This document shows positions 2,215-41,500 of a stretch of 50,565 nt of DNA, piece after piece. Location of the stretch: positions 1-50,565 of the forward strand of contig JAIRRC010000016.1 of the NCBI GenBank assembly GCA_031256175.1, given 5' to 3'. The notes below the pieces were generated by a model. It searched no databases. It was not told the DNA's origin and saw only the letters and a program-made list of their open reading frames with translations. The DNA is from Rickettsiales bacterium. GTDB taxonomy: Bacteria > Pseudomonadota > Alphaproteobacteria > Rs-D84. The stretch's first letter is position 1, and each line of letters starts with the position of its first letter. The position numbers and the translations under genes were made by a program.

Positions 2215-3573
2215 ATGAACATCATTATCGTTTCCTTGTGCGCTTATTTGGCCGTGGTTTTCGGCATCGCTTGGCTTAACGGCAGAAAGCAGAGTCTGGA
2301 CAGCTATTATTTGAACGAAAAGTCCACGGGACTTTTCCTGCTGACCATATCGATAGTGGCGACCGCGGTCGGTGGCGGCGCGATTGTCGGAACGATTTCG
2401 TCGTTTTACAAGACCGGCACATTGATGTATGGCATGCTGCTGCTGGCGACGAACGCGCTGGGCTTTCTATCAGTCGCGCTGGTCGCGCGAAAGATAAAGG
2501 CGTTCGGAGTCCGGCACAATCTGCGCTCTATCGTGGATTTCTTCGGCGTCCGGTTCGGCGCGAAGAACAAAAAGCTGATGCTGGTTCTTCAAATGGTATT
2601 TTTGCTGCCCCTGAACGCGCTGCAAATGCTGGCGGCCAGCGCCCTTCTTGCCGTCCTTTTGGGCATTCCGCTTCTGCCCGCGCTGGCGCTTGTCAGTTTG
2701 TCCACGCTTATATATTCCAGCGTGGGCGGGATGAAGACGAACGTATGGACCGACTTTTTCCAGTTCTTCGTGATAATCTCTATTTTCATCGCGATGGCCG
2801 CCATCGCATGGACGACCATACCGAGCTTCGCCGGATTGGTGCAGTCGGCGCCGGTCAACGCGTTCAATCCCTTCGCGGCGAACGGCACGGCCTGGTTTTT
2901 GGTGATGGCGTCGGCGGGCGGCTTCGCCCAGCTGGCGGCGCCTTATGTATGGCAGCAGATTCTTTCGGCAAGGGACGAAAAGACCGCGGTTCGAAGCGTG
3001 CTGTTCGCCGTTCCCATCGTCGCCGCGATTTTGGGGCTGGTGGCGTTTCTTGGGCTTTATGCGGTCGTGAATATGCCGATGTCGGGATATTACGACACGG
3101 CGTTCTTCTCGCTAATCGAGACACTGCTGCCCAAAGCGCTGGCGGGCATAGGATTCGCGGCGCTTTTCGCGGCCGTCATGTCGACGTCGGACAGCATTCT
3201 TCTCGCAGGCTCGACTATAATTTTCGGCGAGCTCGTCAAAAAGAACAAAAAGCGCAACCGCATTTTTTACGCGCGTCTGACATCCATCGGGTTCGGCGCG
3301 GCAAGCATAGCCATAGCGGCCCTGTTCCCAAGCGTCGTCAGCCTTGGGCTTTACACCATCGCGGTTTTGTTTATTTCCAGTCCGGCGGTGCTTGCTGCGT
3401 TCTATTCCAAGAAGATTTCGAACGACGCCGTTTTCTGGTCGCGCCTGGTTCCGCTGGCCGTTCTGTTCATAGCATATTATCATATAGGCGCGCAGGCGAT
3501 TATGATAACGGCGCCGCTCGGCCTTATTATGCTGTTCCTATACGACCCGGTTGCCAAACTTGTCCGGCGATGA
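2215..3573 (+). CDS. Sodium:solute symporter (SSS) family permease
   Basis: About 13 hydrophobic segments; ATAVGGGAIVG, GGMKTNVWTDFFQ, AAVMSTSDS motifs. ATG 2215 preferred (GAGG upstream) over TTG 2179. Confidence 0.9.
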   Translation: MNIIIVSLCAYLAVVFGIAWLNGRKQSLDSYYLNEKSTGLFLLTISIVATAVGGGAIVGTISSFYKTGTLMYGMLLLATNALGFLSVALVARKIKAFGVRHNLRSIVDFFGVRFGAKNKKLMLVLQMVFLLPLNALQMLAASALLAVLLGIPLLPALALVSLSTLIYSSVGGMKTNVWTDFFQFFVIISIFIAMAAIAWTTIPSFAGLVQSAPVNAFNPFAANGTAWFLVMASAGGFAQLAAPYVWQQILSARDEKTAVRSVLFAVPIVAAILGLVAFLGLYAVVNMPMSGYYDTAFFSLIETLLPKALAGIGFAALFAAVMSTSDSILLAGSTIIFGELVKKNKKRNRIFYARLTSIGFGAASIAIAALFPSVVSLGLYTIAVLFISSPAVLAAFYSKKISNDAVFWSRLVPLAVLFIAYYHIGAQAIMITAPLGLIMLFLYDPVAKLVRR

Positions 3574-3640
3574 AAAGGGCGTTTTGATTCAGCCGCGGCT
3601 TGTGATATAATGCCTATTATCCAAATAATGGGAAAACCGC

Positions 3641-5422
3641 ATGAAAAAACTAGATTTGTTTCCGAAGACGATACTGGGATTCTACTGGTGGCTGTCGAAA
3701 AGATTCTGGATTTATGTATCCGCGCTGATGATTCTTTACACCATCAACGAAGTGCTGGGCGGAATTCTTCCGGCGCTGACGGTTCGCTGGCTTGTCGACG
3801 GAATCGAAACCGCCAACGCCGACGCGCCGCTTATCCAGCATATGCTGCCGGTGCTGGGCCTTATCGCGGCGCTTCATTTGGTTTATCTGATGGCGGACAT
3901 AGTGTCGTCCTATCTTCGCGGCCACTACTCGCCCATCATAAAATCGAAAGTCGCAGATGTCATTTACCGCCGCCTGTCGCGCCAGACCATCGCCTTCTTC
4001 AAGGACAATTCCGCGGGCTTTCTGGTAGAGCAGGCCGGATACATATACAACAAGTATCAGAAAATCGCAATCGACCATGTGAATGAAATTTTTTCGCTCG
4101 CGATGGCCATCGCCATAAACGCCGCCTTGCTTTCCAAGGTTCACTGGATGGTCGCGACTTTGTTCGCCGTCTGCGCGGGCGTGCGTCTTGGTCATTGCGC
4201 GCTTAACGTGAAGAACCTTTGGACCAGCGGAAAGAAGGCTTCAAAAATCGGCGCACAGGTTACGGCAAGCTATGTCGACAGCATTTCGAACTTCATGAAC
4301 ATAAAGCTTTTCAGCCGACGCGACGTCGAGGCGCGCTATCTGAACAAGGTCCGCGGAACGCACAACAACGCGCGCCAAATCGCAAGCTATTACGAGCGGA
4401 AATTCTGGATAATGCCCTTCACGTTCGAGAACATGTGTTTAATCGGCCTTTCGGTCATGCTGGTTTGGCTTTACACAACCGGCGATTTGAAGCTGGGCGA
4501 TATCGCGTTCGCTTTCATGTCGTTCGGAACGATGATGGGCCTTGTGCGGCGCACGACCTGGAAGCTGCCCGACATCGCGGGCGACTTGGCCGACGTAACG
4601 CAGGCCTATAAAAGCATAGCCCAGCCCATTATGATAAAGGACGCGTGCGACGCGAAATGTCTAAGCCTTAAAAAAGGTCAAATCGATTTCAGGGATGTTT
4701 CGTTCAAATACAGCGACGACGGGCCGAATCTGTTCAACCATCTGAACCTTAGCATAGCGCCCGGCGAAAAGGTCGGAATCGTCGGCCTTTCCGGCGGCGG
4801 CAAAAGCACGCTGCTTTATCTGCTTATGCGCCTGTATGACATAAGCGGCGGCAAAATCTGCATCGACGGAAAGGATATTCGCAATGTAACCCAGGATTCC
4901 TTGCGCGGAAACATCTCCTTCGTGCCGCAGGAAAGCGTTTTGTTCAACCGGACGCTTGCCGAAAATATTTCCTATGGTTCCATCGGCGCGAAGAAGACCG
5001 ACATAGTGAAGGCCGCGAAATCCGCCTGCGCGCACGATTTCATCATGAAGATGGAGCAGGGGTATGACACGCCAGTCGGCGACCGCGGGATAAAACTTTC
5101 GGGCGGGCAGAGGCAGCGCGTCGCGATTTCGCGCACCATTTGCAAGAACGCGCCCATCGTCGTCATGGACGAGGCGACTTCGGCGCTGGACTCCAAAACC
5201 GAAACGATAATTCAGAATTCGATGAAGAAGTTCCTGGACGGAAAGACCGCGCTGGTCGTCGCGCACAGGTTGTCGACTTTGCGCCAGATGAATCGCATCA
5301 TCGTTCTTGATAAAGGCAGAATCGTGGAAGAGGGCACGCATGCCGAGCTTCTCAAAAAGAAGAATGGCATATATGCGAATCTTTGGCGCCTTCAAGTCGA
5401 CGGCTTCATCAGCCCGAAGTAA
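3641..5422 (+). CDS. ABC transporter, fused permease/ATPase (MsbA/Atm1-like exporter)
   Basis: N-terminal TM domain; Walker A GLSGGGKS; signature LSGGQRQR; Walker B VVMDEATSALD; H-loop VAHRLST. Confidence 0.95.
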   Translation: MKKLDLFPKTILGFYWWLSKRFWIYVSALMILYTINEVLGGILPALTVRWLVDGIETANADAPLIQHMLPVLGLIAALHLVYLMADIVSSYLRGHYSPIIKSKVADVIYRRLSRQTIAFFKDNSAGFLVEQAGYIYNKYQKIAIDHVNEIFSLAMAIAINAALLSKVHWMVATLFAVCAGVRLGHCALNVKNLWTSGKKASKIGAQVTASYVDSISNFMNIKLFSRRDVEARYLNKVRGTHNNARQIASYYERKFWIMPFTFENMCLIGLSVMLVWLYTTGDLKLGDIAFAFMSFGTMMGLVRRTTWKLPDIAGDLADVTQAYKSIAQPIMIKDACDAKCLSLKKGQIDFRDVSFKYSDDGPNLFNHLNLSIAPGEKVGIVGLSGGGKSTLLYLLMRLYDISGGKICIDGKDIRNVTQDSLRGNISFVPQESVLFNRTLAENISYGSIGAKKTDIVKAAKSACAHDFIMKMEQGYDTPVGDRGIKLSGGQRQRVAISRTICKNAPIVVMDEATSALDSKTETIIQNSMKKFLDGKTALVVAHRLSTLRQMNRIIVLDKGRIVEEGTHAELLKKKNGIYANLWRLQVDGFISPK

Positions 5423-5478
5423 GGACAAAAAATCCAAGCGGGAATTTTCATTTTTGGTCTATAACGCCGATTAGCTTC

Positions 5479-5530
5479 GCAAAACCACCCGTCGCGGCAG
5501 CCTTTAAGGCCAGACGCCGGGTGGTTTTGC
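5479..5530. terminator. Long hairpin after the ABC gene, probable terminator
   Basis: 12-bp inverted repeat GCAAAACCACCC / GGGTGGTTTTGC enclosing an inner GCC-TTTAA-GGC hairpin. Confidence 0.5.
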
Positions 5531-5607
5531 TGGCTTCTCGACGTTCTATCCTCAAAAATGCGTTCCCGCTAAGGATTTTTTGGAGTTATTAATTGTCTAT
5601 AAGATAC

Positions 5608-5636
5608 TTGACAAAATAGATAGTAGGTATTATATT
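5608..5636 (+). promoter_or_regulatory. Sigma70-type promoter of the NUDIX gene
   Basis: TTGACA-N17-TATATT, followed by an AAGGAGG ribosome-binding site before ATG 5666. Confidence 0.75.
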
Positions 5637-5665
5637 TGCCTTAACTTATAAAAAAGGAGGGCGAA

Positions 5666-6427
5666 ATGCCTGCGAACATCATAAGTCCGAAATTAAAGCC
5701 AAGGCCCGAAAATCCAGAAGAAATACTTTCGAATCCGGACTACACCATTTTCGATTCCTATCACAACTATGCCTATGCGCTCGGCCGCTGGGCCGATACT
5801 ACCGGCACAGACCCGAAGGATAAATCCGATTCCAACAACGATATGCTCCGCGTTCTGACCCCAAGCGGAATAGACACCGGCTTCATCGCCCCGCGCGGGT
5901 TCGTCCATTTCGAAGGGCTTTACCATGACGCCGTTATCATCGCGCTCGTCGCGCTGCTGAAAAACGCCAAGAGCGTCAATATGAACGGGCAGGAAATCAC
6001 GACCAGAACCGTGCTTATGCAGCAAAGGGCGAAGGACAAAGGCAAGCATCCGAACAAGTGGGACATATCGGTCGCCGCGCACGTGCTGGCCCAGGATATT
6101 CTGCCAAGCAACGGAATTTACCGCGAGCTTGCGGAAGAGCTCGACGCGCGGCTTCCGGAAGACATCCAGATGCGCGACTTCCAGCACTTCAAATCCTTCA
6201 TCAAGCAGGAAGTCATTTCGGGAAACAACCTCGAGAACCAGTATTACCACGGCTATGTCTTCTATGTCGACCCGACCGCGCTGGACATAAAATATCCCGA
6301 CAAGGAAGTCCAGGCTTCGAAGTATGTGTCGCTTCCCGAAATCCGCGAGATGGCCAATAAAGACCTGCTTCATCCGCGGACCGAATGGATAGAGCCGCTG
6401 GCCGGCGCAATCCTTAGGATTCGATAA
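5666..6427 (+). CDS. NUDIX hydrolase, IPP isomerase type 1/YfcD-like
   Basis: GLYH, VLMQQRAKDKGKHPNKWDISVAAHV and RELAEELD Nudix-box-like segment; EVQASKYV tail motif. Confidence 0.75.
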   Translation: MPANIISPKLKPRPENPEEILSNPDYTIFDSYHNYAYALGRWADTTGTDPKDKSDSNNDMLRVLTPSGIDTGFIAPRGFVHFEGLYHDAVIIALVALLKNAKSVNMNGQEITTRTVLMQQRAKDKGKHPNKWDISVAAHVLAQDILPSNGIYRELAEELDARLPEDIQMRDFQHFKSFIKQEVISGNNLENQYYHGYVFYVDPTALDIKYPDKEVQASKYVSLPEIREMANKDLLHPRTEWIEPLAGAILRIR

Positions 6428-6470
6428 AACCCTTGAAAAACCAAATTAGTCTGATATAGTGTCCGGCGAC

Positions 6471-6560
6471 GGACGGGTGGCAGAGCGGTTGATTGTACCG
6501 CACTCGAAATGCGGCATACTCGCAAGGGTATCGTGGGTTCAAATCCCACCCCGTCCGCCA
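6471..6560 (+). tRNA. tRNA-Ser(CGA)
   Basis: Acceptor GGACGGG/CCCGTCC, discriminator G, encoded CCA; anticodon arm CCGCA-CTCGAAA-TGCGG; long variable arm; GTTCAAATC T-loop. Confidence 0.97.
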
Positions 6561-6676
6561 GAATGTTTCCGTGCGTCATCCTTCGTTCCCTCGCGAGGCG
6601 CACCAACAATTCGCCACTAACAACGCGGCTCATTGGGTGCTTGTTCGCTCGTGCTCAAATCCCACCCCGTCCGCCA
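6561..6676 (+). mobile_element. tRNA-linked 94-bp structured element plus exact 22-bp duplicate of the tRNA-Ser 3' end
   Basis: 6655..6676 is identical to 6539..6560; internal sequence is homologous to 41186..41278 and 41380..41474. Mobility is inferred, not shown. Confidence 0.75.
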
Positions 6677-6737
6677 TCCGCCTTCGCTTACGCTCCGGCG
6701 CGATTGGCGAAACAAATCGGGGCGGCGGTTTTTAGGC
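6671..6737 (+). repeat. 67-bp direct repeat, copy 1 (terminator-like multi-hairpin)
   Basis: Matches 8003..8069 with 3 mismatches; starts with the tRNA end CCGCCA and finishes in a GC stem plus T-run. Confidence 0.9.
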
Positions 6738-6777
6738 AAACCTATATCTAGCCCCAAAGTTGATAGTCAACAGGGCG

Positions 6778-7281
6778 TCAGTTGGAAGGTTCTTTCAGGA
6801 TACCCTCCCTTAGCAAGGCGTCTTCAAGAAATTCATATTGTTTAAGGATAATCTTTTTATTAGGTTCGGCCAACATTTCTTTTGCATCTTTTTCAAGATT
6901 TTCCTCTATCCTTTGCAGGAACGCGTCATTGTTTCCCCTTTGCTTTGCCCTTCGTTTATATTCTTCTTTGCTATATATATTTGGAACGGCCAAAATGCAA
7001 TCCACACCTCTTTCCCTAAGCAAGTCATAAATAATTTTGCCCGGAGCTACCAAAACAACTTCGTATTTTTTCATGGCTTCGATAACCGCGTCGACATAAT
7101 TGTTCGGCCAATACGGATTTATTTCTCTTTGAGTGGATTTCAAGGATTCTGGTGGCATACTTTTCTGTTCATCAGTTAACAGATACTTATAATTCCCGCT
7201 TGCGATTTCTGTAACATTTTTATAATTTTCTATGATAAATGTTTTGCCCGCGCAAATCCACGCACTAATCACAAAACTCAT
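6778..7281 (-). CDS. Hypothetical P-loop nucleotide-kinase-like protein
   Basis: SAWICAGKT Walker-A-like N-terminus; ATG 7281 with AAGGA upstream, 1 nt after the fic stop; AT-rich; similar layout to 34447..34941. Confidence 0.7.
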   Translation of the reverse strand: MSFVISAWICAGKTFIIENYKNVTEIASGNYKYLLTDEQKSMPPESLKSTQREINPYWPNNYVDAVIEAMKKYEVVLVAPGKIIYDLLRERGVDCILAVPNIYSKEEYKRRAKQRGNNDAFLQRIEENLEKDAKEMLAEPNKKIILKQYEFLEDALLREGILKEPSN

Positions 7282-7282
7282 T

Positions 7283-7888
7283 TTATAGTTCCTTAGTTTT
7301 GAATTCGTCATATCCTTCGTAATAATAGCTGACGTCTATGCCTTTCATGAACAGCTCGCGCTCGTTTGTCCTGCCAGTCAAAGCGCCTTTTAGCAGGTGC
7401 TTTATCTCGGCGCTATTCACGGGACTGCGCTCCATCGCGGAAAGATAGGCCGCCTTGTCTATTTTGTTCCAGTTGACGACCTTCTTCAACTCTTTCTTCA
7501 ATATCAAGTCCAGCCATATACGCGTCGCGCGGCCGTTGCCTTCGCGGAAGGGGTGGGCGATATTCATCTCGACATACTTGTCGACAATCTCGTCGAAGGT
7601 CTTTTGCGGCATTTTGTCGATGTGCTTCAAAGATTGCGGCAGGTGCATGAGTGGAGCGAAACGGAAGCTGCTTTTGGCGATGTTCACGTCGCGTATTTTC
7701 CCGGCAAAGTCGTAAATCCCGCCGAATAGGAACTTGTGTATTTGGCACAAGCCGATGAAGGTGCCGACCTTCACCTTGTCGATTTTTCCGCTATCGAAGA
7801 AAATCCTTGCCTGCTGCTTGCTGATTTTCTCTTCTGTCTTGTTAAGTTCGACCTGATTCGCGATGTTTAATTTGTTTTTCAATACCAT
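7283..7888 (-). CDS. fic: Fic-domain AMPylase, class III (NmFic-like)
   Basis: Catalytic [12 protein letters not shown] and C-terminal inhibitory SYYYEG, which fits (S/T)xxxE(G/N). Confidence 0.93.
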
Positions 7889-8002
7889 TTTTTGCGCCCT
7901 CTGAATATACTACATTATAGCCCGGGAAAAACGAGAAATCCATCTTATTATTCGGTAGATTTGGGCATTCTTATATGCCGCCATATACTCAGGAATCCTG
8001 CA

Positions 8003-8069
8003 CCGCCATCCGCCTTCGCTTACGCTCCGGCGCGATTGGCGAAGCAAATCGGGGCGGTGGTTTTCAGGC
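8003..8069 (+). repeat. 67-bp direct repeat, copy 2
   Basis: 64 of 67 positions identical to 6671..6737. Confidence 0.9.
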
Positions 8070-8186
8070 GAATATATAATAATGCCCGAAAGTCGATAGC
8101 CTGATGATAGATGGCTAAATTACACGTTGACAAACGTTTTGTATGGCATAATATGATAAAAAATCCAGAATTATAAGGAATTAGCC

Positions 8187-8636
8187 ATGAATGATTACTT
8201 AAAGAGCAGATACCTTGGAATAACACCCGAAGGCGAAAAAGAAGCGTTTGAAAAAAACATAACCGAATTAAACGGCGACCTTGGAACAAGCCATCAACGA
8301 TATCGCAGAAACATATCTTACGGATGTTCGAAATTCAGAGATATGTTCTTTCAAGCGAATTCTTTATCCGGCAAGTCGGAAAGTTGTTTATTTTTTGCTA
8401 TGATTAAGGAATTGGTGCTCCATAACGACAGAGAATCCGTAGCCATTAACAAAGCCGGAGGAGTATGGCAAGGAATGGTTGAGATTTTTGTATCTCCAAA
8501 TTGCCTGGAAAATAGTTATAATGAAACTCTTGAAAAACTGATGGATGACATATCTAAAAACACGCAAGACGCCGCCGATAATGTTTGCAAATTATGTAAA
8601 ATGATAACCGATTTACGCACGGCAGCCCAGAGATAA
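8187..8636 (+). CDS. Hypothetical protein (AT-rich)
   Basis: 149-aa ORF, AAGGA upstream; no motif recognised. Confidence 0.65.
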   Translation: MNDYLKSRYLGITPEGEKEAFEKNITELNGDLGTSHQRYRRNISYGCSKFRDMFFQANSLSGKSESCLFFAMIKELVLHNDRESVAINKAGGVWQGMVEIFVSPNCLENSYNETLEKLMDDISKNTQDAADNVCKLCKMITDLRTAAQR

Positions 8637-29228: not shown

Positions 29229-30368
29229 ATGAAGGTTTATGATTTAATAATAATAGGGGCAGGGGCGGCGGGGCTTTGTGCCGCGCGCGCCGCGCTGGCC
29301 CGCGCGCGCAGCGTTCTGGTTCTGGACATGGGCGAAAAGCCCCTGCGAAAAGTCGCTGTGTCCGGCGGCGGGCGCTGCAATTTCACGAACCTTGCGGCGG
29401 ATTCTTCAAGATATTTCGGCCAGAATCCCGACTTCGCAAAATCCGCATTGTCCCGCGTGAAACCGGGAGATATTTTGGACTGGGCTGGCAAACACGGGAT
29501 AAAATATATAGAGAAAGCGCCCGGGCAGTTCTTTTGCAAGGACGGCGCCGAAGTTTTCGTCAAAGCCATGCTTGCAGACGTTCGCGGCGCGGACATTGTT
29601 TTGAACGCGAAGGTTATGGATGTTGAAAAGAAGGACGATGAATTTTTGGTTTATACAAAGGACGAGGTTCCCGCTTTCGCGGGGACGACATTGGTGGTGG
29701 CGACGGGCGGGGTTGGTTTTCCGAACCTTGGCGTGTCGGATTTCGGGATGCAAGTCGCGAAAAAGTTCGGGCACAAAATCGTGCCGCCGCAGCCCGGTTT
29801 GGTCGCCTTGAAAACGGACGCGTTTCCCGCGGAATTGTCAGGGCTCGCCTTGCCAGTTGAAATAAATGGAATAAAAGATTCATTGCTGTTCACGCATTTC
29901 GGAATCGGCGGGCCCGCGGCGTATCGCGCGTCCATGCTGGACCTTTCAAAGGGCGTTCGCATAAATTTCATGCCGAATATGGACGCCTTCGCGTTCCTTA
30001 AAAACGCGAAAAAGACCGATGGAAAAAAGCAGGCCGCGACGATTTTAAGCGCGGTTCTTCCAGGGAAACTGGCGAAATGGATTTGCCCCGAAGACAAGCG
30101 GATTGCCGATTATAAGGATGCGGAACTGGAAGCGTTCGCGAAAAATATAAACGACTTCGCGGTTCCGGCGGTCAAAGCGCGCGGGTTCGAAAGCAGCGAG
30201 GTCATGCGCGGCGGCGTTTCGACCGATGAAGTTTCTTCGAAGACTTTCGAATCGAAATTATGCCCCGGGCTTTATTTCGCGGGCGAGGTTTTGGATATAA
30301 CCGGAGATTTAGGCGGGTTCAATCTTCACTGGGCCTTCGCCAGCGGCCTTATTGCAGGAGCTTTTTGA
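29229..30368 (+). CDS. HI0933/BaiN-family flavoprotein
   Basis: IIGAGAAG, KVAVSGGGRCNFTN, VVATGG, LFTHFGIGGPA, GLYFAGEVLDITGDLGGFNL. Confidence 0.95.
   Translation: MKVYDLIIIGAGAAGLCAARAALARARSVLVLDMGEKPLRKVAVSGGGRCNFTNLAADSSRYFGQNPDFAKSALSRVKPGDILDWAGKHGIKYIEKAPGQFFCKDGAEVFVKAMLADVRGADIVLNAKVMDVEKKDDEFLVYTKDEVPAFAGTTLVVATGGVGFPNLGVSDFGMQVAKKFGHKIVPPQPGLVALKTDAFPAELSGLALPVEINGIKDSLLFTHFGIGGPAAYRASMLDLSKGVRINFMPNMDAFAFLKNAKKTDGKKQAATILSAVLPGKLAKWICPEDKRIADYKDAELEAFAKNINDFAVPAVKARGFESSEVMRGGVSTDEVSSKTFESKLCPGLYFAGEVLDITGDLGGFNLHWAFASGLIAGAF
29664..29689. repeat. REP-like palindrome embedded in frame in the flavoprotein gene
   Basis: TTCCCGC-TTTC-GCGGGGACGAC, 18/22 match to the core of 41559..41584; encodes VPAFAGTT. 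Confidence 0.55.
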
Positions 30369-30963
30369 TTTTGGATTCCAATAAATCGCGCTCGCCTTTG
30401 CAATTTTCGAAATAGCCTTCGACTTTTCCGATTTGTTTCCCGTCCCGGAAAAGCACCAATGCGGGCAATTCCGAAACGCCAAGCCCGGCCAGCAATTCGT
30501 CCGACGGCGACATCACTTTTATATGCGTCCATTTGTCGCGGCTTCCGAACAATTCGCCAAGCGGCACCGACATCAGCAGACAGCGAATCAAATCTTCCTT
30601 GTTCAATTCCATAACGACCAAACCCGGCGTCTTTTCGGCAAGCGCCATCGCGTCTTCGGACGCGGTGTCCTTCGTAAGCGCGAAATCGCCGCCGTATCTG
30701 TCCACGAATAAATCCTCGGCCCGGCGCGGGTCGTCCGCGATTTCCCGCGCGATTCGCTTTTCTTCCGCGGCGTCGCGCGCAAGCCTTATCGCCTGGGCTA
30801 TCGGGCATTCCTTTTCGCAAGCGCCGCATCCGATACATTTTTCCGCATCGTGTCCGATGCGTCCGTTGGCGGCGTCCCAGAACATCGCGCCGGTCGGGCA
30901 GACCCGGATTCCGCCGCAAGCGGGCGACATGTCGCAGACTTTATGGTTTATGAAAACTTTCAT
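30349..30963 (-). CDS. 4Fe-4S ferredoxin domain fused to a thioredoxin-like domain
   Basis: CDMSPACGGIRVCP and CIGCGACEKECP; C-terminal LPALVLFRDGKQIGKVEG (Trx-like), no CxxC. Confidence 0.8.
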   Translation of the reverse strand: MKVFINHKVCDMSPACGGIRVCPTGAMFWDAANGRIGHDAEKCIGCGACEKECPIAQAIRLARDAAEEKRIAREIADDPRRAEDLFVDRYGGDFALTKDTASEDAMALAEKTPGLVVMELNKEDLIRCLLMSVPLGELFGSRDKWTHIKVMSPSDELLAGLGVSELPALVLFRDGKQIGKVEGYFENCKGERDLLESKIKKLLQ

Positions 30964-30965
30964 TG

Positions 30966-31181
30966 TTATCTTCCGTAATATTCGTTGAACGCTTTGATGG
31001 CTTCGCGCAACTTTGGCGACATCGGCATGTTTCCGTTCAGGACGAATTCTTTTACTATCGGTCCGCCGCGTTCGTCAAGCTTGTTGGTCAATACGAAATT
31101 TTTCGGGAAGGCGGCGGCAAGCGCTTCGATGGATTCTTTTTCTTCGCGCAGTTGCTCGCGGGTTTTGAGGACTTTTATCAT
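30966..31181 (-). CDS. Small hypothetical protein
   Basis: 71 aa; AAGGA ribosome-binding site; TTGAAT-N16-TATTAT upstream (31227..31200); ends 2 nt before the next start codon. Confidence 0.7.
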   Translation of the reverse strand: MIKVLKTREQLREEKESIEALAAAFPKNFVLTNKLDERGGPIVKEFVLNGNMPMSPKLREAIKAFNEYYGR

Positions 31182-31228
31182 GTCGTTTTCCTTTGAGGGA
31201 TAATACCCGACGGCGCCTTAAATTCAAG

Positions 31229-31392
31229 AAAAAAATCTCCCGGCTTTTGGCCGGGATACAAAGCATTCATAGAAGGAGGAAGGAAAGGAGAAACGAACGC
31301 TTTAAGCTTTTGGTTCCCCGGGGCCTAGAGGAGAGAGAATGTAGGAGGGAGTCTAGTTCCCCAGGGAATGCCTTGAGGTTTCCCTCTCGACA
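31229..31392 (-). ncRNA. Candidate sRNA with two C/U-rich anti-Shine-Dalgarno loops
   Basis: Strong promoter, two stems with 22- and 24-nt pyrimidine loops each containing CCUCCU, intrinsic terminator, no credible ORF. Confidence 0.75.
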
Positions 31393-31398
31393 TTGACA

Positions 31399-31427
31399 AA
31401 TATAGCGACACTTCTTCCATTTGTCAA
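31399..31427 (-). promoter_or_regulatory. Sigma70-type promoter of the candidate sRNA
   Basis: Minus strand TTGACA (31427..31422)-N17-TATATT (31404..31399). Confidence 0.8.
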
Positions 31428-31739
31428 GCGTGTTTTACAAAATTTATTATTTGTGTCCGAAATCGAGCTAAAGCGGCAAGTTTCCTTTGAAAATAGCTGA
31501 TTTTTTAATTTTTGCTTGGAATTCTATCGGCTTTCGTATATAATATAAATGCATTGAAAAGATGCCGAGAAATGAAAATTCTCGCTATTATTGCGCTCGG
31601 ATAGGCGCAGACAAATATATCCCGCTGACCGGCGGGATTGCGCTTGTTATATATTGAAGACCGGCGCTGTCGTATAATAGCGATATTTTCATAGTCCCGC
31701 CGACTTTTGCAATGTGATATGCAATGCAAGAGAGAAAAC

Positions 31740-32117
31740 ATGAAAATCATTCCGATAATCATCGCCGCAGCCTCTATTTGCCTGGCTGCGCCGTCATTCG
31801 CCGACGAACCGAAATCCGAAGCCGACTGCCCGGACAATTATTTCTTTTACAGGCAAGCATCGGGCAGGACGGCCGTCGGCAAATGCGCCGAAGCATGCCC
31901 GGCGGGCAGGGTTTGCAGACAGAACGACAGGCTTGCGGTTCGAATCGAAAAATTCGAAAGGGAAGCGGGCGTTATAATATCGCGGCTGGACGAGGCGAAT
32001 GCCGAAGCTCAGCCGGAAATATTCGACGAATATATAGAGCGGCGCAGCGATTTCATACTGGAAATGAGGAAAGACTTCGACATCGACCTTTCCGACGCGC
32101 CGGATTTCGCCTATTAA
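31740..32117 (+). CDS. Secreted hypothetical protein with four Cys
   Basis: Signal peptide MKIIPIIIAAASICLAAPSFA; CPDNY...CAEACPAGRVC; ATG 31740. Confidence 0.7.
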   Translation: MKIIPIIIAAASICLAAPSFADEPKSEADCPDNYFFYRQASGRTAVGKCAEACPAGRVCRQNDRLAVRIEKFEREAGVIISRLDEANAEAQPEIFDEYIERRSDFILEMRKDFDIDLSDAPDFAY

Positions 32118-35474: not shown

Positions 35475-36233
35475 TTACAATTGTTTTCGGACAATCCAGA
35501 AAATGGTGTCTGCGGAAAACTCCCTGACCGCATCGCTTTCATCGGCGAAGTCAGGACGATACGCGTGTTCCATTATTTCAAAATTTCCGCGCTTTAAGAA
35601 TTCTTTCACTTCGTCCATGCTTGGAATATGGATTATATTCAAAACCGCATCCGGCGTGTCTTCCGGATAAAGCCGGTCGCCGAACTTTTCAAGACGCGGG
35701 TCTTGGGTCCCATTTTCAAAACGCGTTTTTTGCTCTGCCCAGAATTCGGCATGCTTTCCGTTTTCATCGCGCTTATGCGCGGTGAAAATGAATTTTCCCC
35801 CCGGTTTCAACACGCGGCGGACTTCATCCAACACCTTGTCGCGGTTTTTCTGTTCGGGAATGCACATCAGGCCGTTGAACGAAAACACCGCAACGTCGAA
35901 GGAATCGCCGTCAAAAGGCAGACTGCGCGCGTCGCCCTGCATAAACTCGATGGCGAGATTATGTTCGCGCGAGTAGTTTTTCGCGAATTCGACAAATCTG
36001 TCCGACAAATCCAACCCGACGATATCTTCATATCCCAGCTTGAATAGATTGATTGTTGTGCGCCCGCAGCCGCAACCGAGGTCCAAAATCCTATCGGTTT
36101 TATTTATATGCTTTTCAAATATAATTTTTTCGGATTTCCACAGACCAATTTTTTCAACCGCCTCGCCATAATGAGCTATGTTCGCATCGGTTTCATAATG
36201 GTTTTTAGTGGTTTCGATTGTTATTTTGCCCAT
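35475..36233 (-). CDS. Class I SAM-dependent methyltransferase
   Basis: ILDLGCGCGR, GLDLS, GDARSLPF..SFDV, VLKPGG. Confidence 0.92.
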   Translation of the reverse strand: MGKITIETTKNHYETDANIAHYGEAVEKIGLWKSEKIIFEKHINKTDRILDLGCGCGRTTINLFKLGYEDIVGLDLSDRFVEFAKNYSREHNLAIEFMQGDARSLPFDGDSFDVAVFSFNGLMCIPEQKNRDKVLDEVRRVLKPGGKFIFTAHKRDENGKHAEFWAEQKTRFENGTQDPRLEKFGDRLYPEDTPDAVLNIIHIPSMDEVKEFLKRGNFEIMEHAYRPDFADESDAVREFSADTIFWIVRKQL

Positions 36234-36298: not shown

Positions 36299-36330
36299 TT
36301 GACATTATTGACGGGGGGGGGGGGTAGACT
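36299..36330 (+). promoter_or_regulatory. Promoter with a G12 homopolymer in the -35/-10 spacer (candidate phase-variable)
   Basis: TTGACA-TTATTGAC-G12-TAGACT upstream of the beta-barrel gene. Confidence 0.7.
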
Positions 36331-36392: not shown

Positions 36393-37037
36393 ATGAAAAA
36401 ACTGCTTCTAATATCAACGGCGCTGACCGCGGTTTCTAGCGGCGCTTTCGCTTTTGAAACCAATATCGGCGACATTTCGCCGTATGTTTCCGGCCGAATC
36501 GGCCTCCAAATTCTAACCGCCGATGGCGCTGACCAGTCGGCTACCGGAAGCGTCAAGGCCGGCGCAATCGGCGCGCGCTGGAAGGGCGAAGAATTAAACC
36601 TTCGCGGCGAATTCGAATTCTCGAACGGGACATACGTCAACTATGGCGAGGACGCGGACATAGTCAACGGAAGCAATGTCGTTATCGGGCACGTCAGCTT
36701 TCCCGAAGAGTATAAGATGAACACTTATATGCTGAACGCCTATGCCGACTTCTTCACGAACTATAAGATAAAGCCGTATGTCGGCGCCGGTATCGGCGCG
36801 GCTTCGACCGACGTCAAATTATGGGTGGAAGAAAGAATCGGAAGCCTTGACATGGTAAAAATCCCGGTCGCGGAATTTTCCAAAAACTCGTTCATCTACG
36901 GCATATACGGCGGAATCGGATTCGACGTGATAACCGGCCTGGCGGTGGATTTGGGCGTGCGCTACAACGCCTTCACGATAGAAAAAGTCGATTTGTCGAT
37001 GGTGTCCGTCAATGCCGGCGCCCGGCTGACGTTCTAA
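36393..37037 (+). CDS. Outer-membrane beta-barrel protein (opacity/OmpA-transmembrane-like)
   Basis: Signal peptide; LRGEFEFS, YMLNAYADF..IKPYVGAGIG, VDLGVRY; C-terminal Phe. Confidence 0.85.
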   Translation: MKKLLLISTALTAVSSGAFAFETNIGDISPYVSGRIGLQILTADGADQSATGSVKAGAIGARWKGEELNLRGEFEFSNGTYVNYGEDADIVNGSNVVIGHVSFPEEYKMNTYMLNAYADFFTNYKIKPYVGAGIGAASTDVKLWVEERIGSLDMVKIPVAEFSKNSFIYGIYGGIGFDVITGLAVDLGVRYNAFTIEKVDLSMVSVNAGARLTF

Positions 37038-38270: not shown

Positions 38271-39389
38271 TTAAGGATTGGTGAGGCGGAGCTCGATACG
38301 GCGGTTCTTTTGAAGGTCGGCGGGCGTATTGCCCAGCGCCACAGGATACATTTCGCCGAAGCCCGTCGGCGCCAACAAACGCCTATCAATTCCGTTCTTC
38401 ACAAGCTCGTCCACGACGCTGCGCGCACGCATAAGCGACAACTGCGTATTATCCTTCAATTCGCTGCCCGGTTTCACCGGAACGTTATCGGTATGTCCGT
38501 CGACGCGGATTATCCATTCGACATTCTTCGGAATCGTCGTATAAATTTCCTTTATTACGCCCGCGATTTGTTTCAGCTGCGCCTTGCCCTTGTCCGAAAT
38601 TTTCGCGCTTCCCTGCGGGAACATGATGTCGCTGGGCAAAGTGAACCGGTCGTCGTCCATTTTTATCATGCCCGTGTCGCCCAACGATTTTTTGATGGCG
38701 GTATAAAACATGGATTGATATTCGCGCACGTCGGCCTGCTCGGCCAGTTTATCCGCCAGCGCGCGGTTGAAGCGGTTTGAAAGCTCGACATACTGGACTT
38801 CGTTTTCGGCCGCCTTTTGTTCCGACACCGCGAGCGCGTTCGACAGGCGCGAGATTTCTTCCGAAAGGTTCCGCATTTGCACGGCGCTCATTTCCCGTTC
38901 CGAACTTTTTGTTTCGGATTCCGCGCGCAATGTTCCGCGAAGGTTTTCAAGTTCTTCCAGAAGGCGCCGTTTTTCTATGTCGGACGCGGCCGCATCGTCC
39001 CGCATTATTTGCAGCTGCGCGCGCTGTTCGTCGAGCGCGCTTGTGTCGGTTTGGGTTCGTTCAAGCTCCAACAGGGCGTTCGCAAGCGCGCGGTCTTTCG
39101 CGGCGGCGTCGATTTCAAGGCGCGCGGCGGTTTCGGCGACTATCGCTTTCTGGCGCAGAAGCTCGTCCTGCGACGCGCGCATTTTCATATTGTCCGCCGC
39201 CAGGCGCCGGGCGCGCTCGGTAAGTTCGGTAAGAGCCGTATGGTCGGGCGTCGCGCCCTTCATCATGAATTTCGCGGACGACGCTATGACCACGAAAACG
39301 ATAAGCAGAAACATCAGGATTATGGTCAGGTTCGAGAACAAGTCGACGAACCCGGGCCAGATATTAACCGGCTCGCGCTGTCTTTGCAT
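38271..39389 (-). CDS. MotB/OmpA-like peptidoglycan-binding membrane protein with long coiled coil
   Basis: NIWPGFVD TM segment; RVDGHTD, NTQLSLMRARSV, KNRRIE. Confidence 0.9.
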   Translation of the reverse strand: MQRQREPVNIWPGFVDLFSNLTIILMFLLIVFVVIASSAKFMMKGATPDHTALTELTERARRLAADNMKMRASQDELLRQKAIVAETAARLEIDAAAKDRALANALLELERTQTDTSALDEQRAQLQIMRDDAAASDIEKRRLLEELENLRGTLRAESETKSSEREMSAVQMRNLSEEISRLSNALAVSEQKAAENEVQYVELSNRFNRALADKLAEQADVREYQSMFYTAIKKSLGDTGMIKMDDDRFTLPSDIMFPQGSAKISDKGKAQLKQIAGVIKEIYTTIPKNVEWIIRVDGHTDNVPVKPGSELKDNTQLSLMRARSVVDELVKNGIDRRLLAPTGFGEMYPVALGNTPADLQKNRRIELRLTNP

Positions 39390-41185: not shown

Positions 41186-41300
41186 GAAGGCCTGTGCGTG
41201 CCTTCCCTCGTTCCCTCGCGACGCGCACATCTTTTCGCCGCTAACAACGCGGCTCAAAGTGTGCTTATTCGCTCGTGCTCGAGTCTCCCTATCCGCACCA
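41186..41300 (+). mobile_element. tRNA-linked 93-bp element plus exact 22-bp duplicate of the tRNA-Leu 3' end
   Basis: 41279..41300 is identical to 41164..41185; homologous to 6561..6654. Confidence 0.75.
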
Positions 41301-41379: not shown

Positions 41380-41496
41380 AAATTTTGAAGTGCGCCATCC
41401 ATCGTTCTCTCGCGACACGCACATCAAAAAATCCCCTAATAACGGGGATTTTCTGTGCGCTTATACGCTCGTGCTCGATTCCGACCCGGGCCTCCA
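41380..41496 (+). mobile_element. tRNA-linked 95-bp element plus exact 22-bp duplicate of the tRNA-Cys 3' end
   Basis: 41475..41496 is identical to 41358..41379; shares all conserved blocks with the other two copies. Confidence 0.75.
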
Positions 41497-41500
41497 AAAT

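Follow-up and report, generated by a model that had tools for sequence, protein, structure and literature searches.

Does the AT-rich spacer upstream of a ferredoxin/thioredoxin-like gene of a Rickettsiales bacterium hold a small RNA (sRNA) gene and, if so, how would its product act? We addressed this question in a stretch of 50,565 nt of this organism (GCA_031256175.1, contig JAIRRC010000016.1), hereafter the window, the whole of which provides the coordinates used below. A first-pass annotation had placed at positions 31229-31392 a stand-alone sRNA candidate with two large loops that resemble an anti-Shine-Dalgarno (anti-SD) sequence, and had proposed that it represses the translation of multiple targets. 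Our analysis of the sequence indicates that this is probably a real and well-formed orphan sRNA gene. The reading that we favour, and to which we give an even chance of being right, is that of an independently transcribed, trans-acting repressor that blocks the translation of multiple targets by pairing with their Shine-Dalgarno (SD) sites.

A predicted small RNA with two G-free loops

The candidate is located within a 520 nt AT-rich spacer, between a plus-strand gene for a secreted protein and a minus-strand open reading frame (ORF) of 71 amino acids (aa). All sRNA sequences are given in their reading direction, which is the minus strand. The predicted RNA is about 165 nt long and extends from about 31393 to about 31229, with a distance of about 161 nt between promoter and terminator. 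Its promoter (TTGACA-N17-TATATT, 11/12) lies on the minus strand exactly where it had been described, and was the top promoter-like site in a scan of 2.2 kb. The distance to the -10 box places the predicted start site at about 31393, within a range of 31391-31394.

Folding of positions 31225-31396 yielded identical minimum free energy and centroid structures, with a stability of -59.1 kcal/mol (z = -3.7) that was reached by none of 200 shuffled controls. The fold is made up of a small 5' hairpin with a GNRA tetraloop, two long hairpins joined by a single-stranded linker, and a G+C-rich intrinsic terminator followed by a U-run (Table 1). It survives within a read-through context of 255 nt (z = -2.2), in which hairpin 1 is retained. 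The promoter and terminator scans and the folds recovered every element of the first-pass annotation, including the GAGG-GAAA-CCUC hairpin, the two large-loop stems, and the terminator, so its description and coordinates are correct. The discrete minus-strand signals from promoter to terminator, with no credible ORF among them, also agree with the stand-alone unit that it had proposed.

The two loops sum to 44 nt without a single G, and the partition function gives them a probability of about 1.0 of being unpaired. Both contain CCUCCU, as had been noticed, and they hold the overlapping anti-SD registers CCUCC, CUCCU, and UCCUU. The canonical 3' end of 16S rRNA carries the 7-mer CCUCCUU, which is also found in loop 2.

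The promoter region displays a further feature. It holds a perfect 9-bp inverted repeat, whose arms are 100% complementary and separated by 17 nt. The -35 box lies within one arm, and the other arm overlaps both the predicted start site and the end of the -10 box. The chance expectation for such a repeat in this spacer is about 0.1-0.3. Its placement around the -35 box and the start site suggests a candidate operator for a dimeric repressor or other regulator, through which transcription of the sRNA would be controlled. Meanwhile, three of the four other promoters in the window with scores of at least 11/12 sit just upstream of long ORFs, suggesting that this promoter consensus is used in the genome.

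Table 1 Features of the candidate sRNA locus, its neighbours, and the tRNA-trailing elements
Feature	Position	Strand	Description
-35 hexamer	31422..31427	-	TTGACA; 11/12 promoter with 17-nt spacer
-10 hexamer	31399..31404	-	TATATT; 11/12 promoter with 17-nt spacer
Inverted repeat, upstream arm	31419..31427	-	TTGACAAAT; contains -35 box
Inverted repeat, downstream arm	31393..31401	-	ATTTGTCAA; overlaps -10 end and predicted start site
5' hairpin	31368..31393	-	AUGUC-GA-GAGG-GAAA-CCUC-AA-GGCAU; GNRA tetraloop; 26 nt; predicted fold
Hairpin 1	31315..31367	-	Stem of 9 + 5 bp with small internal loop; 53 nt; predicted fold
Loop 1	31330..31351	-	CUCCCUCCUACAUUCUCUCUCC; 22 nt; no G; contains CCUCCU; mean P(unpaired) 1.000
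Linker	31305..31314	-	ACCAAAAGCU; 10 nt; single-stranded; predicted fold
Hairpin 2	31259..31304	-	12-bp stem; 46 nt; predicted fold
Loop 2	31271..31292	-	UUCUCCUUUCCUUCCUCCUUCU; 22 nt; no purine; contains CCUCCUU; P(unpaired) about 1.0
Intrinsic terminator	31229..31256	-	UCCCGGC-CAAAA-GCCGGGA (31256-31238), GA, U7 (31235-31229); terminator scan
Weak promoter-like site of downstream operon	31200..31227	-	TTGAAT-16-TATTAT; 9/12; overlaps end of terminator U-run
71-aa ORF, orphan, called as gene	30966..31181	-	Start 48 nt past sRNA U-run
204-aa 4Fe-4S ferredoxin/thioredoxin-like protein	30349..30963	-	Downstream of 71-aa ORF
Small secreted protein gene	from about 31707	+	Borders spacer
tRNA-trailing elements with duplicate	6561-6677, 41186-41300, 41380-41497	+	Window
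tRNA-trailing element after tRNA-Leu(CAA)	about 4220-4338	-	Relative L146 (87% GroEL identity)

Distinctness within the window and search for relatives

How unusual is such a unit in the window? Five promoter matches of at least 11/12 and about ten distinct strong terminators were found on both strands of the whole window, and the sRNA locus provided the only pair in which a promoter of at least 10/12 is followed by a terminator 40-400 nt downstream. Likewise, among 4032 overlapping folded segments of 170 nt, two loops of at least 14 nt with at least 85% pyrimidine occurred over this locus only. The few single long pyrimidine loops elsewhere in the window were U-rich, not C-rich. The motif CCTCCT is present in 4 copies against about 10 expected, half of which are those of loops 1 and 2, and the longest pyrimidine run of the window (23 nt at 31271-31293, minus strand) is that of loop 2. 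The combination of these features exceeds chance.

The first-pass annotation had named a confident match to a housekeeping RNA as something that would speak against its proposal. Scanning the whole window at the Rfam gathering thresholds retrieved three tRNAs only and no family at the sRNA locus, be it a housekeeping RNA or another. Two permissive scans, covering 451 nt and 179 nt (E <= 10), returned only sub-threshold matches, the best of which was to RF02278, with 22.6 bits and E-values of 0.024 and 0.0097 in these small search spaces. This match spans the full model and falls on loop 2 and the terminator (31229-31293, minus strand). It was followed by anti-hemB (16.5 bits), and both models describe sRNAs that follow the same principle. 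Since the best score of 22.6 bits compares with a threshold of 50, membership in any Rfam family was rejected.

We also built a single-sequence covariance model from the candidate, a kind of model that is weak at finding distant relatives. In the window it matched only itself, and it retrieved nothing credible from about 145 kb of relatives (13 loci, which are only small parts of their genomes) or from about 450 kb of 86 other loci. Nothing comparable came out of a crude search for pyrimidine-loop hairpins. A candidate in a relative (L146, 1351-1392, minus strand) was discarded because it folds differently, and the one match to the two-loop pattern in viral contigs proved to be a simple CU repeat of a giant-virus contig, without structure. 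BLAST searches of plasmids and phages gave no match. Scans of genome and metagenome contig collections with the ferredoxin alignment, which relied on generic 4Fe-4S peptide patterns, led to distant loci only. As no homologue was found in these searches, the suggested new family would for now be a family of one.

Synteny in relatives, another check that had been proposed, led to no orthologue. The order of the HIT-family, groES, and groEL genes, which lie on the opposite flank of the locus, is kept in the closest relatives (GroEL identity of 86-91%), but beyond the HIT gene the content differs. Relatives of the ferredoxin/thioredoxin-like protein (58-70% identity) were found in unrelated contexts in every case.

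Proposed mode of action

We favour a trans-acting repressor because known sRNAs that occlude ribosome-binding sites (RBS) are built in the same way, with stable stems that present unpaired, G-free anti-SD loops. In such a mechanism, the two stable stems would display two unpaired loops of 22 nt free of G, which would pair with the purine-rich RBS (GGAGG, AAGGAG, AGGA) of several mRNAs. Pairing would keep the 30S subunit off the RBS, so that translation would be repressed and the decay of the mRNA would probably be faster. The two loops would serve as redundant or cooperative seeds, as in the sRNA NfeR1. Purine-rich SD sites such as AAGGAG do occur in the window, for example those of groES (AAGGAGAAA), of the gene at 5666 (AAAGGAGGG), and of the gene at 39389 on the minus strand (GAAGGAAGAGAGGGA). 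The predicted duplexes of loop 2 with the start regions of groES and of the gene at 39389 reach about -18.5 kcal/mol. These start regions were picked by hand, because greedy calling of the longest ORFs proved unreliable in this genome, which has 53% G+C.

Several points weigh against this proposal. Target prediction in the window was non-discriminating, with the best duplexes inside coding regions, and the duplexes identify no targets because loops of this kind pair with nearly every SD site. Transcription, action in trans, targets, and operator are all inferred from the sequence and its predicted fold. No homologue was found in about 600 kb of loci, nor in plasmids, phages, or viral contigs, and therefore the sRNA has no support from conservation or covariation. 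The 50-kb window holds no Hfq-like motif, and the 3' end of the organism's 16S rRNA lies outside of it. Finally, a role in cis is possible, since the next gene in the direction of transcription begins only 48 nt after the sRNA.

A bolder version of anti-SD action deserves mention, although we consider it improbable. The RNA could be the founding member of an undescribed "poly-anti-SD" class in uncultured alphaproteobacteria, its two loops acting either as a cell-wide mimic of the 16S rRNA 3' end that competes with ribosomes for SD sites, as a chaperone-independent brake on growth, or as a decoy for proteins of the S1 or Rho type. Either of these alternatives differs from a seed that chooses a defined regulon.

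Alternative explanations

Among the rival explanations, the one that survives best had not been raised by the first-pass annotation. The element may act in cis, as a 5' leader or attenuator for the genes downstream, which we regard as unlikely but still worth serious consideration. The stop codon of the 71-aa ORF and the start codon of the 204-aa ferredoxin/thioredoxin-like gene are separated by just 2 nt (TAA-CA-ATG), suggesting that these genes form one operon. Under this explanation, transcripts from the strong promoter would be mostly terminated, and a factor bound to the pyrimidine loops would set the extent of read-through and with it the expression of the operon. The short RNA would then be a by-product, or be active both in cis and in trans. 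The arrangement is compatible with this, as element and operon share a strand and a distance of 48 nt separates the end of the element from the operon's start codon. The promoter-like signal that had been assigned to the downstream gene itself does exist, but it is a weak one (9/12 at 31227-31200). In addition, when 255 nt including the read-through region are folded, the sRNA 5' end, AUGUCG...GAGGGA (31368-31393), pairs with UCCCUC...CGACAU (31180-31203, minus strand). The latter sequence lies to either side of the SD site AAAGGAAAA of the 71-aa gene and shares bases with its AUG. The centroid of this fold also contains the AUGUCG/CGACAU helix. This predicted complementarity could link the sRNA, or leader, to the 71-aa gene in cis or in trans. 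On the other hand, two complementarities of 6 bp could be due to chance, and with z = -2.2 the read-through fold stands out less than that of the sRNA. In neither fold does the terminator face a rival antiterminator pairing, the Rfam scans gave no match to a riboswitch or leader family on the minus strand, and to our knowledge no attenuator senses its signal via G-free loops.

That the locus has no function at all, being a chance combination of promoter, hairpins, and terminator in an AT-rich spacer or a decaying remnant, strikes us as a minor possibility. It would account for an element that is an orphan in every collection searched, and AT-rich spacers are indeed enriched in promoter-like sites, of which 10 were found against 1.8 expected. 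Chance would nevertheless have to bring together several rare features, namely an 11/12 promoter, a fold with z = -3.7, two G-free loops of 22 nt, and a strong terminator, in a combination that is unique in the window.

The loops might instead act as a decoy or sponge that titrates a pyrimidine-binding protein (ribosomal protein S1, Rho, or a cold-shock protein) or a purine-rich RNA, an explanation to which we give little credence. Loops of 22 nt without G far exceed the 8-9 nt that a seed requires. Loading sites of Rho are C-rich, G-poor, and unstructured, and S1 favours pyrimidine-rich single strands. The closest analogue, NfeR1, is independent of Hfq and has an unknown chaperone (PMC10746234), which could be taken to point in the same direction. 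Yet two loops are few beside known sponges such as CsrB, and pairing with SD sites is the better explanation for the exact anti-SD strings (CCUCCU twice, CCUCCUU once).

It is very unlikely that the transcript acts by encoding a small protein. The predicted +1 position falls on an AUG (31393-31391) that opens a frame of 22 codons (MSRGKPQGIPWGTRLPPTFSLL), which would be translated as a leaderless ORF. This frame crosses the 5' hairpin and hairpin 1, ending in the 3' arm of the latter, and its length is not unusual for a random AUG, above all in CU-rich sequence that is poor in stop codons. There is no homologue in which conservation could be assessed at the level of codons, and the ORF would leave both loop 2 and the purine-free design unexplained.

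Finally, we give almost no weight to a functional RNA from the plus strand, where the nearly symmetric hairpins could also form and would expose GGA- and GGAGG-rich loops (about 7 GGA motifs) as a CsrA/RsmA-type sponge or SD-site mimic, since the 9/12 promoter-like site of that strand (31175-31204) is weak and falls within the beginning of the 71-aa gene, no hairpin is followed by a U-run, no strong terminator is nearby, the Rfam scans gave no match to a CsrB/Rsm family, and both the 11/12 promoter and the canonical terminator belong to the minus strand.

Genomic setting of the locus

The nearest GroEL sequences, with identities of 91, 87, and 86%, come from metagenome-assembled genomes labelled as Rickettsiales or Alphaproteobacteria bacterium. 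Exact look-ups of the GroES, HIT-family, and 71-aa proteins led solely to the same organism in the same sample, where the second contig with this locus, the only other one found, has an identical sRNA region. In an independent Logan assembly of this sample, a break between two contigs falls within about 31636-31900: one contig (L001) begins at about 31636, and the other (L148) ends inside the plus-strand gene beside the HIT gene.

The 71-aa protein belongs to no Pfam family and has zero homologues among 5.8 billion protein clusters. Its structure model is of medium confidence (predicted local distance difference test score of 70), with an α-β-β-α arrangement for which the PDB provided no significant fold match. 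The model offers nothing that would link this protein to the sRNA as an RNA-binding partner, an idea that was set aside. Meanwhile, in some relatives (L136 at 3404-8612, L137, and L150 at 37-231), the homologue of the ferredoxin/thioredoxin-like protein is found among phage genes, including those for a Bbp19-like protein, a head-tail connector, and a terminase, which suggests that this family also travels on prophages.

Two further observations were made in the window. The first is a homopolymer of twelve C at 36313-36324 on the minus strand (G12 on the plus strand), within a gap of about 160 nt between divergent ORFs (35475-36233 on the minus strand and 36393-37037 on the plus strand), which could be a site of phase variation by slipped-strand mispairing or an assembly artefact.

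The second concerns the tRNA genes. The window has no rRNA gene, and all three of its tRNA genes (Ser-CGA, Leu-AAG, Cys-GCA) have behind them a conserved element, 95-97 nt in length, with the core GTGCG..CCTTC..TTCCCTCGCGA..GCGCAC..CTAAYAACGSGG..GTGYGCTTRTWCGCTCGTGCT, past which lies a 22-nt duplicate of the 3' end of the same tRNA, from the T-loop to CCA. The first hairpin of this element also has a CU-rich loop. The same arrangement of element and duplicate was seen after one tRNA gene of a relative (Table 1) and was lacking after five other tRNA genes in relatives, and searches of Rfam, plasmids, and viral contigs gave no match. Possibly this is a small mobile element, integrative or retro-mobile, with the tRNA T-loop as its target and an unusually long target duplication as its product.

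Comparison with known anti-SD sRNAs

Loops rich in C and U had been named as the targeting modules of several known sRNAs, and this is a documented architecture, which the candidate shares with NfeR1/αr14 and AbcR (PMC10746234), the Cuckoo RNAs (PMC4615179), and the double-hairpin RNAs of Burkholderia (PMC5688073). Silencing of ribosome-binding sites by unpaired stretches rich in C and U has been demonstrated for NfeR1 and AbcR (PMC10746234). NfeR1 of Sinorhizobium meliloti, also named C14 and the founding member of αr14, silences ntrB and transporter mRNAs via three redundant anti-SD motifs (PMC10746234). The Cuckoo RNAs, for which RBS silencing was inferred, carry CCUCCUCCC in each loop (PMC4615179).

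The family that comprises Cuckoo and αr14, that is, CcsR1-4 (RSs0680a-d) of Rhodobacter sphaeroides and NfeR1, offers the richest comparison. Its members are alphaproteobacterial as well and consist of adjacent modular hairpins with anti-SD loops, in which the stem sequences are arbitrary and the loops act as redundant seeds that occlude the RBS (PMC4615179, PMC10746234); the candidate sRNA shares this as a matter of design only. The family has 2-4 adjacent hairpins without a multiloop, comparable to the two long hairpins found here along with the small 5' hairpin and the terminator, and NfeR1 has a promoter of the σ70 type, as does the candidate. The published Cuckoo matcher accepts hairpins of 24-50 nt, loops of 9-27 nt, helices of at least 6 bp, and linkers of up to 10 nt (PMC4615179). 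The candidate fits this geometry in its loops (22 nt), linker (10 nt), and helices (14 and 12 bp), and hairpin 2 (46 nt) is within the size range, whereas hairpin 1 (53 nt) exceeds it by 3 nt. The first-pass annotation had set the candidate apart by loops much larger than typical Cuckoo loops, but 22 nt is within the accepted range, and loop size fails to separate the candidate from that family.

Other features do separate the two. The loops of the candidate carry CCCUCCU and UUCCUCCUU in place of CCUCCUCCC, and a search of the window for CCTCCTCCC gave no hit, whether exact or with one mismatch, although a more relaxed variant, such as the IUPAC variants of the matcher's Fig. 3C, may still be present. 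Instead of a single 9-mer, the loops are long pyrimidine tracts that offer several SD registers, and there is an extra 5' GNRA hairpin. The Rfam matches at E <= 10 included no family of the αr14 or Cuckoo type, even when searching only 179 nt. The locus has neither DUF1127 nor any other conserved Cuckoo neighbourhood, its 71-aa neighbour lacking a Pfam domain, and the candidate is single-copy in 50 kb. Its lineage, as indicated by the relatives of its GroEL (metagenome-assembled genomes of Rickettsiales or Alphaproteobacteria bacterium), is outside Rhizobiales and Rhodobacterales. With motif, covariance-model match, neighbourhood, and lineage all differing, membership in Cuckoo/αr14 was rejected.

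The top Rfam similarity of the candidate, RF02278 ("Betaproteobacteria toxic small RNA"), represents the Burkholderia double-hairpin RNAs ncS03, ncS05, ncS27, and ncS62, grouped with sibling sRNAs of the NmsR/RcoF type from Neisseria. The double-hairpin RNAs have CU-rich unpaired regions complementary to ribosome-binding sites, and overexpression of ncS27 attenuates growth while silencing of its CU-rich region has the opposite effect, which makes this region responsible (PMC5688073). The candidate shares with them the RBS-complementary, CU-rich unpaired stretches and the 3' terminator hairpin. However, these RNAs are only 57-92 nt long, with one single-stranded 5' CU stretch and one small CU loop, compared with 165 nt and two loops of 22 nt here, and they belong to a different bacterial class and occur in 3-5 copies per genome. 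The resemblance is one of design and not of membership, since the score of 22.6 bits is well short of the gathering threshold of 50.

AbcR1/2 (αr15) of Rhizobiales also use unpaired, anti-SD-like seeds to repress many transporter mRNAs at the RBS (PMC10746234). They depend on Hfq and have shorter seeds, and for the candidate neither an AbcR match in Rfam nor a tandem sibling was seen. A more distant parallel is RNAIII of Staphylococcus aureus, whose C-rich loops (UCCC) make the first contact with the RBS of several targets without Hfq (summarised in PMC4615179). Its sequence, size, and phylum are unrelated, and the resemblance is one of convergent design only.

The principle of anti-SD pairing is already known, and the candidate alone leaves the field unchanged. 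If real, it would nonetheless provide a further independent sRNA with anti-SD loops beside Cuckoo/αr14, AbcR, the beta-proteobacterial double-hairpin RNAs, and RNAIII, in this case from a poorly known, uncultured lineage of Alphaproteobacteria and with unusually long G-free loops. It would also support mimicry of the 16S rRNA 3' end as a recurrent and convergent solution to multi-target translational control, embodied in a compact module that is readily testable in a heterologous host. Collectively, these comparisons suggest that the candidate most likely shares its mode of action with Cuckoo/NfeR1, AbcR, and the double-hairpin RNAs of Burkholderia, yet stands outside all of these families.

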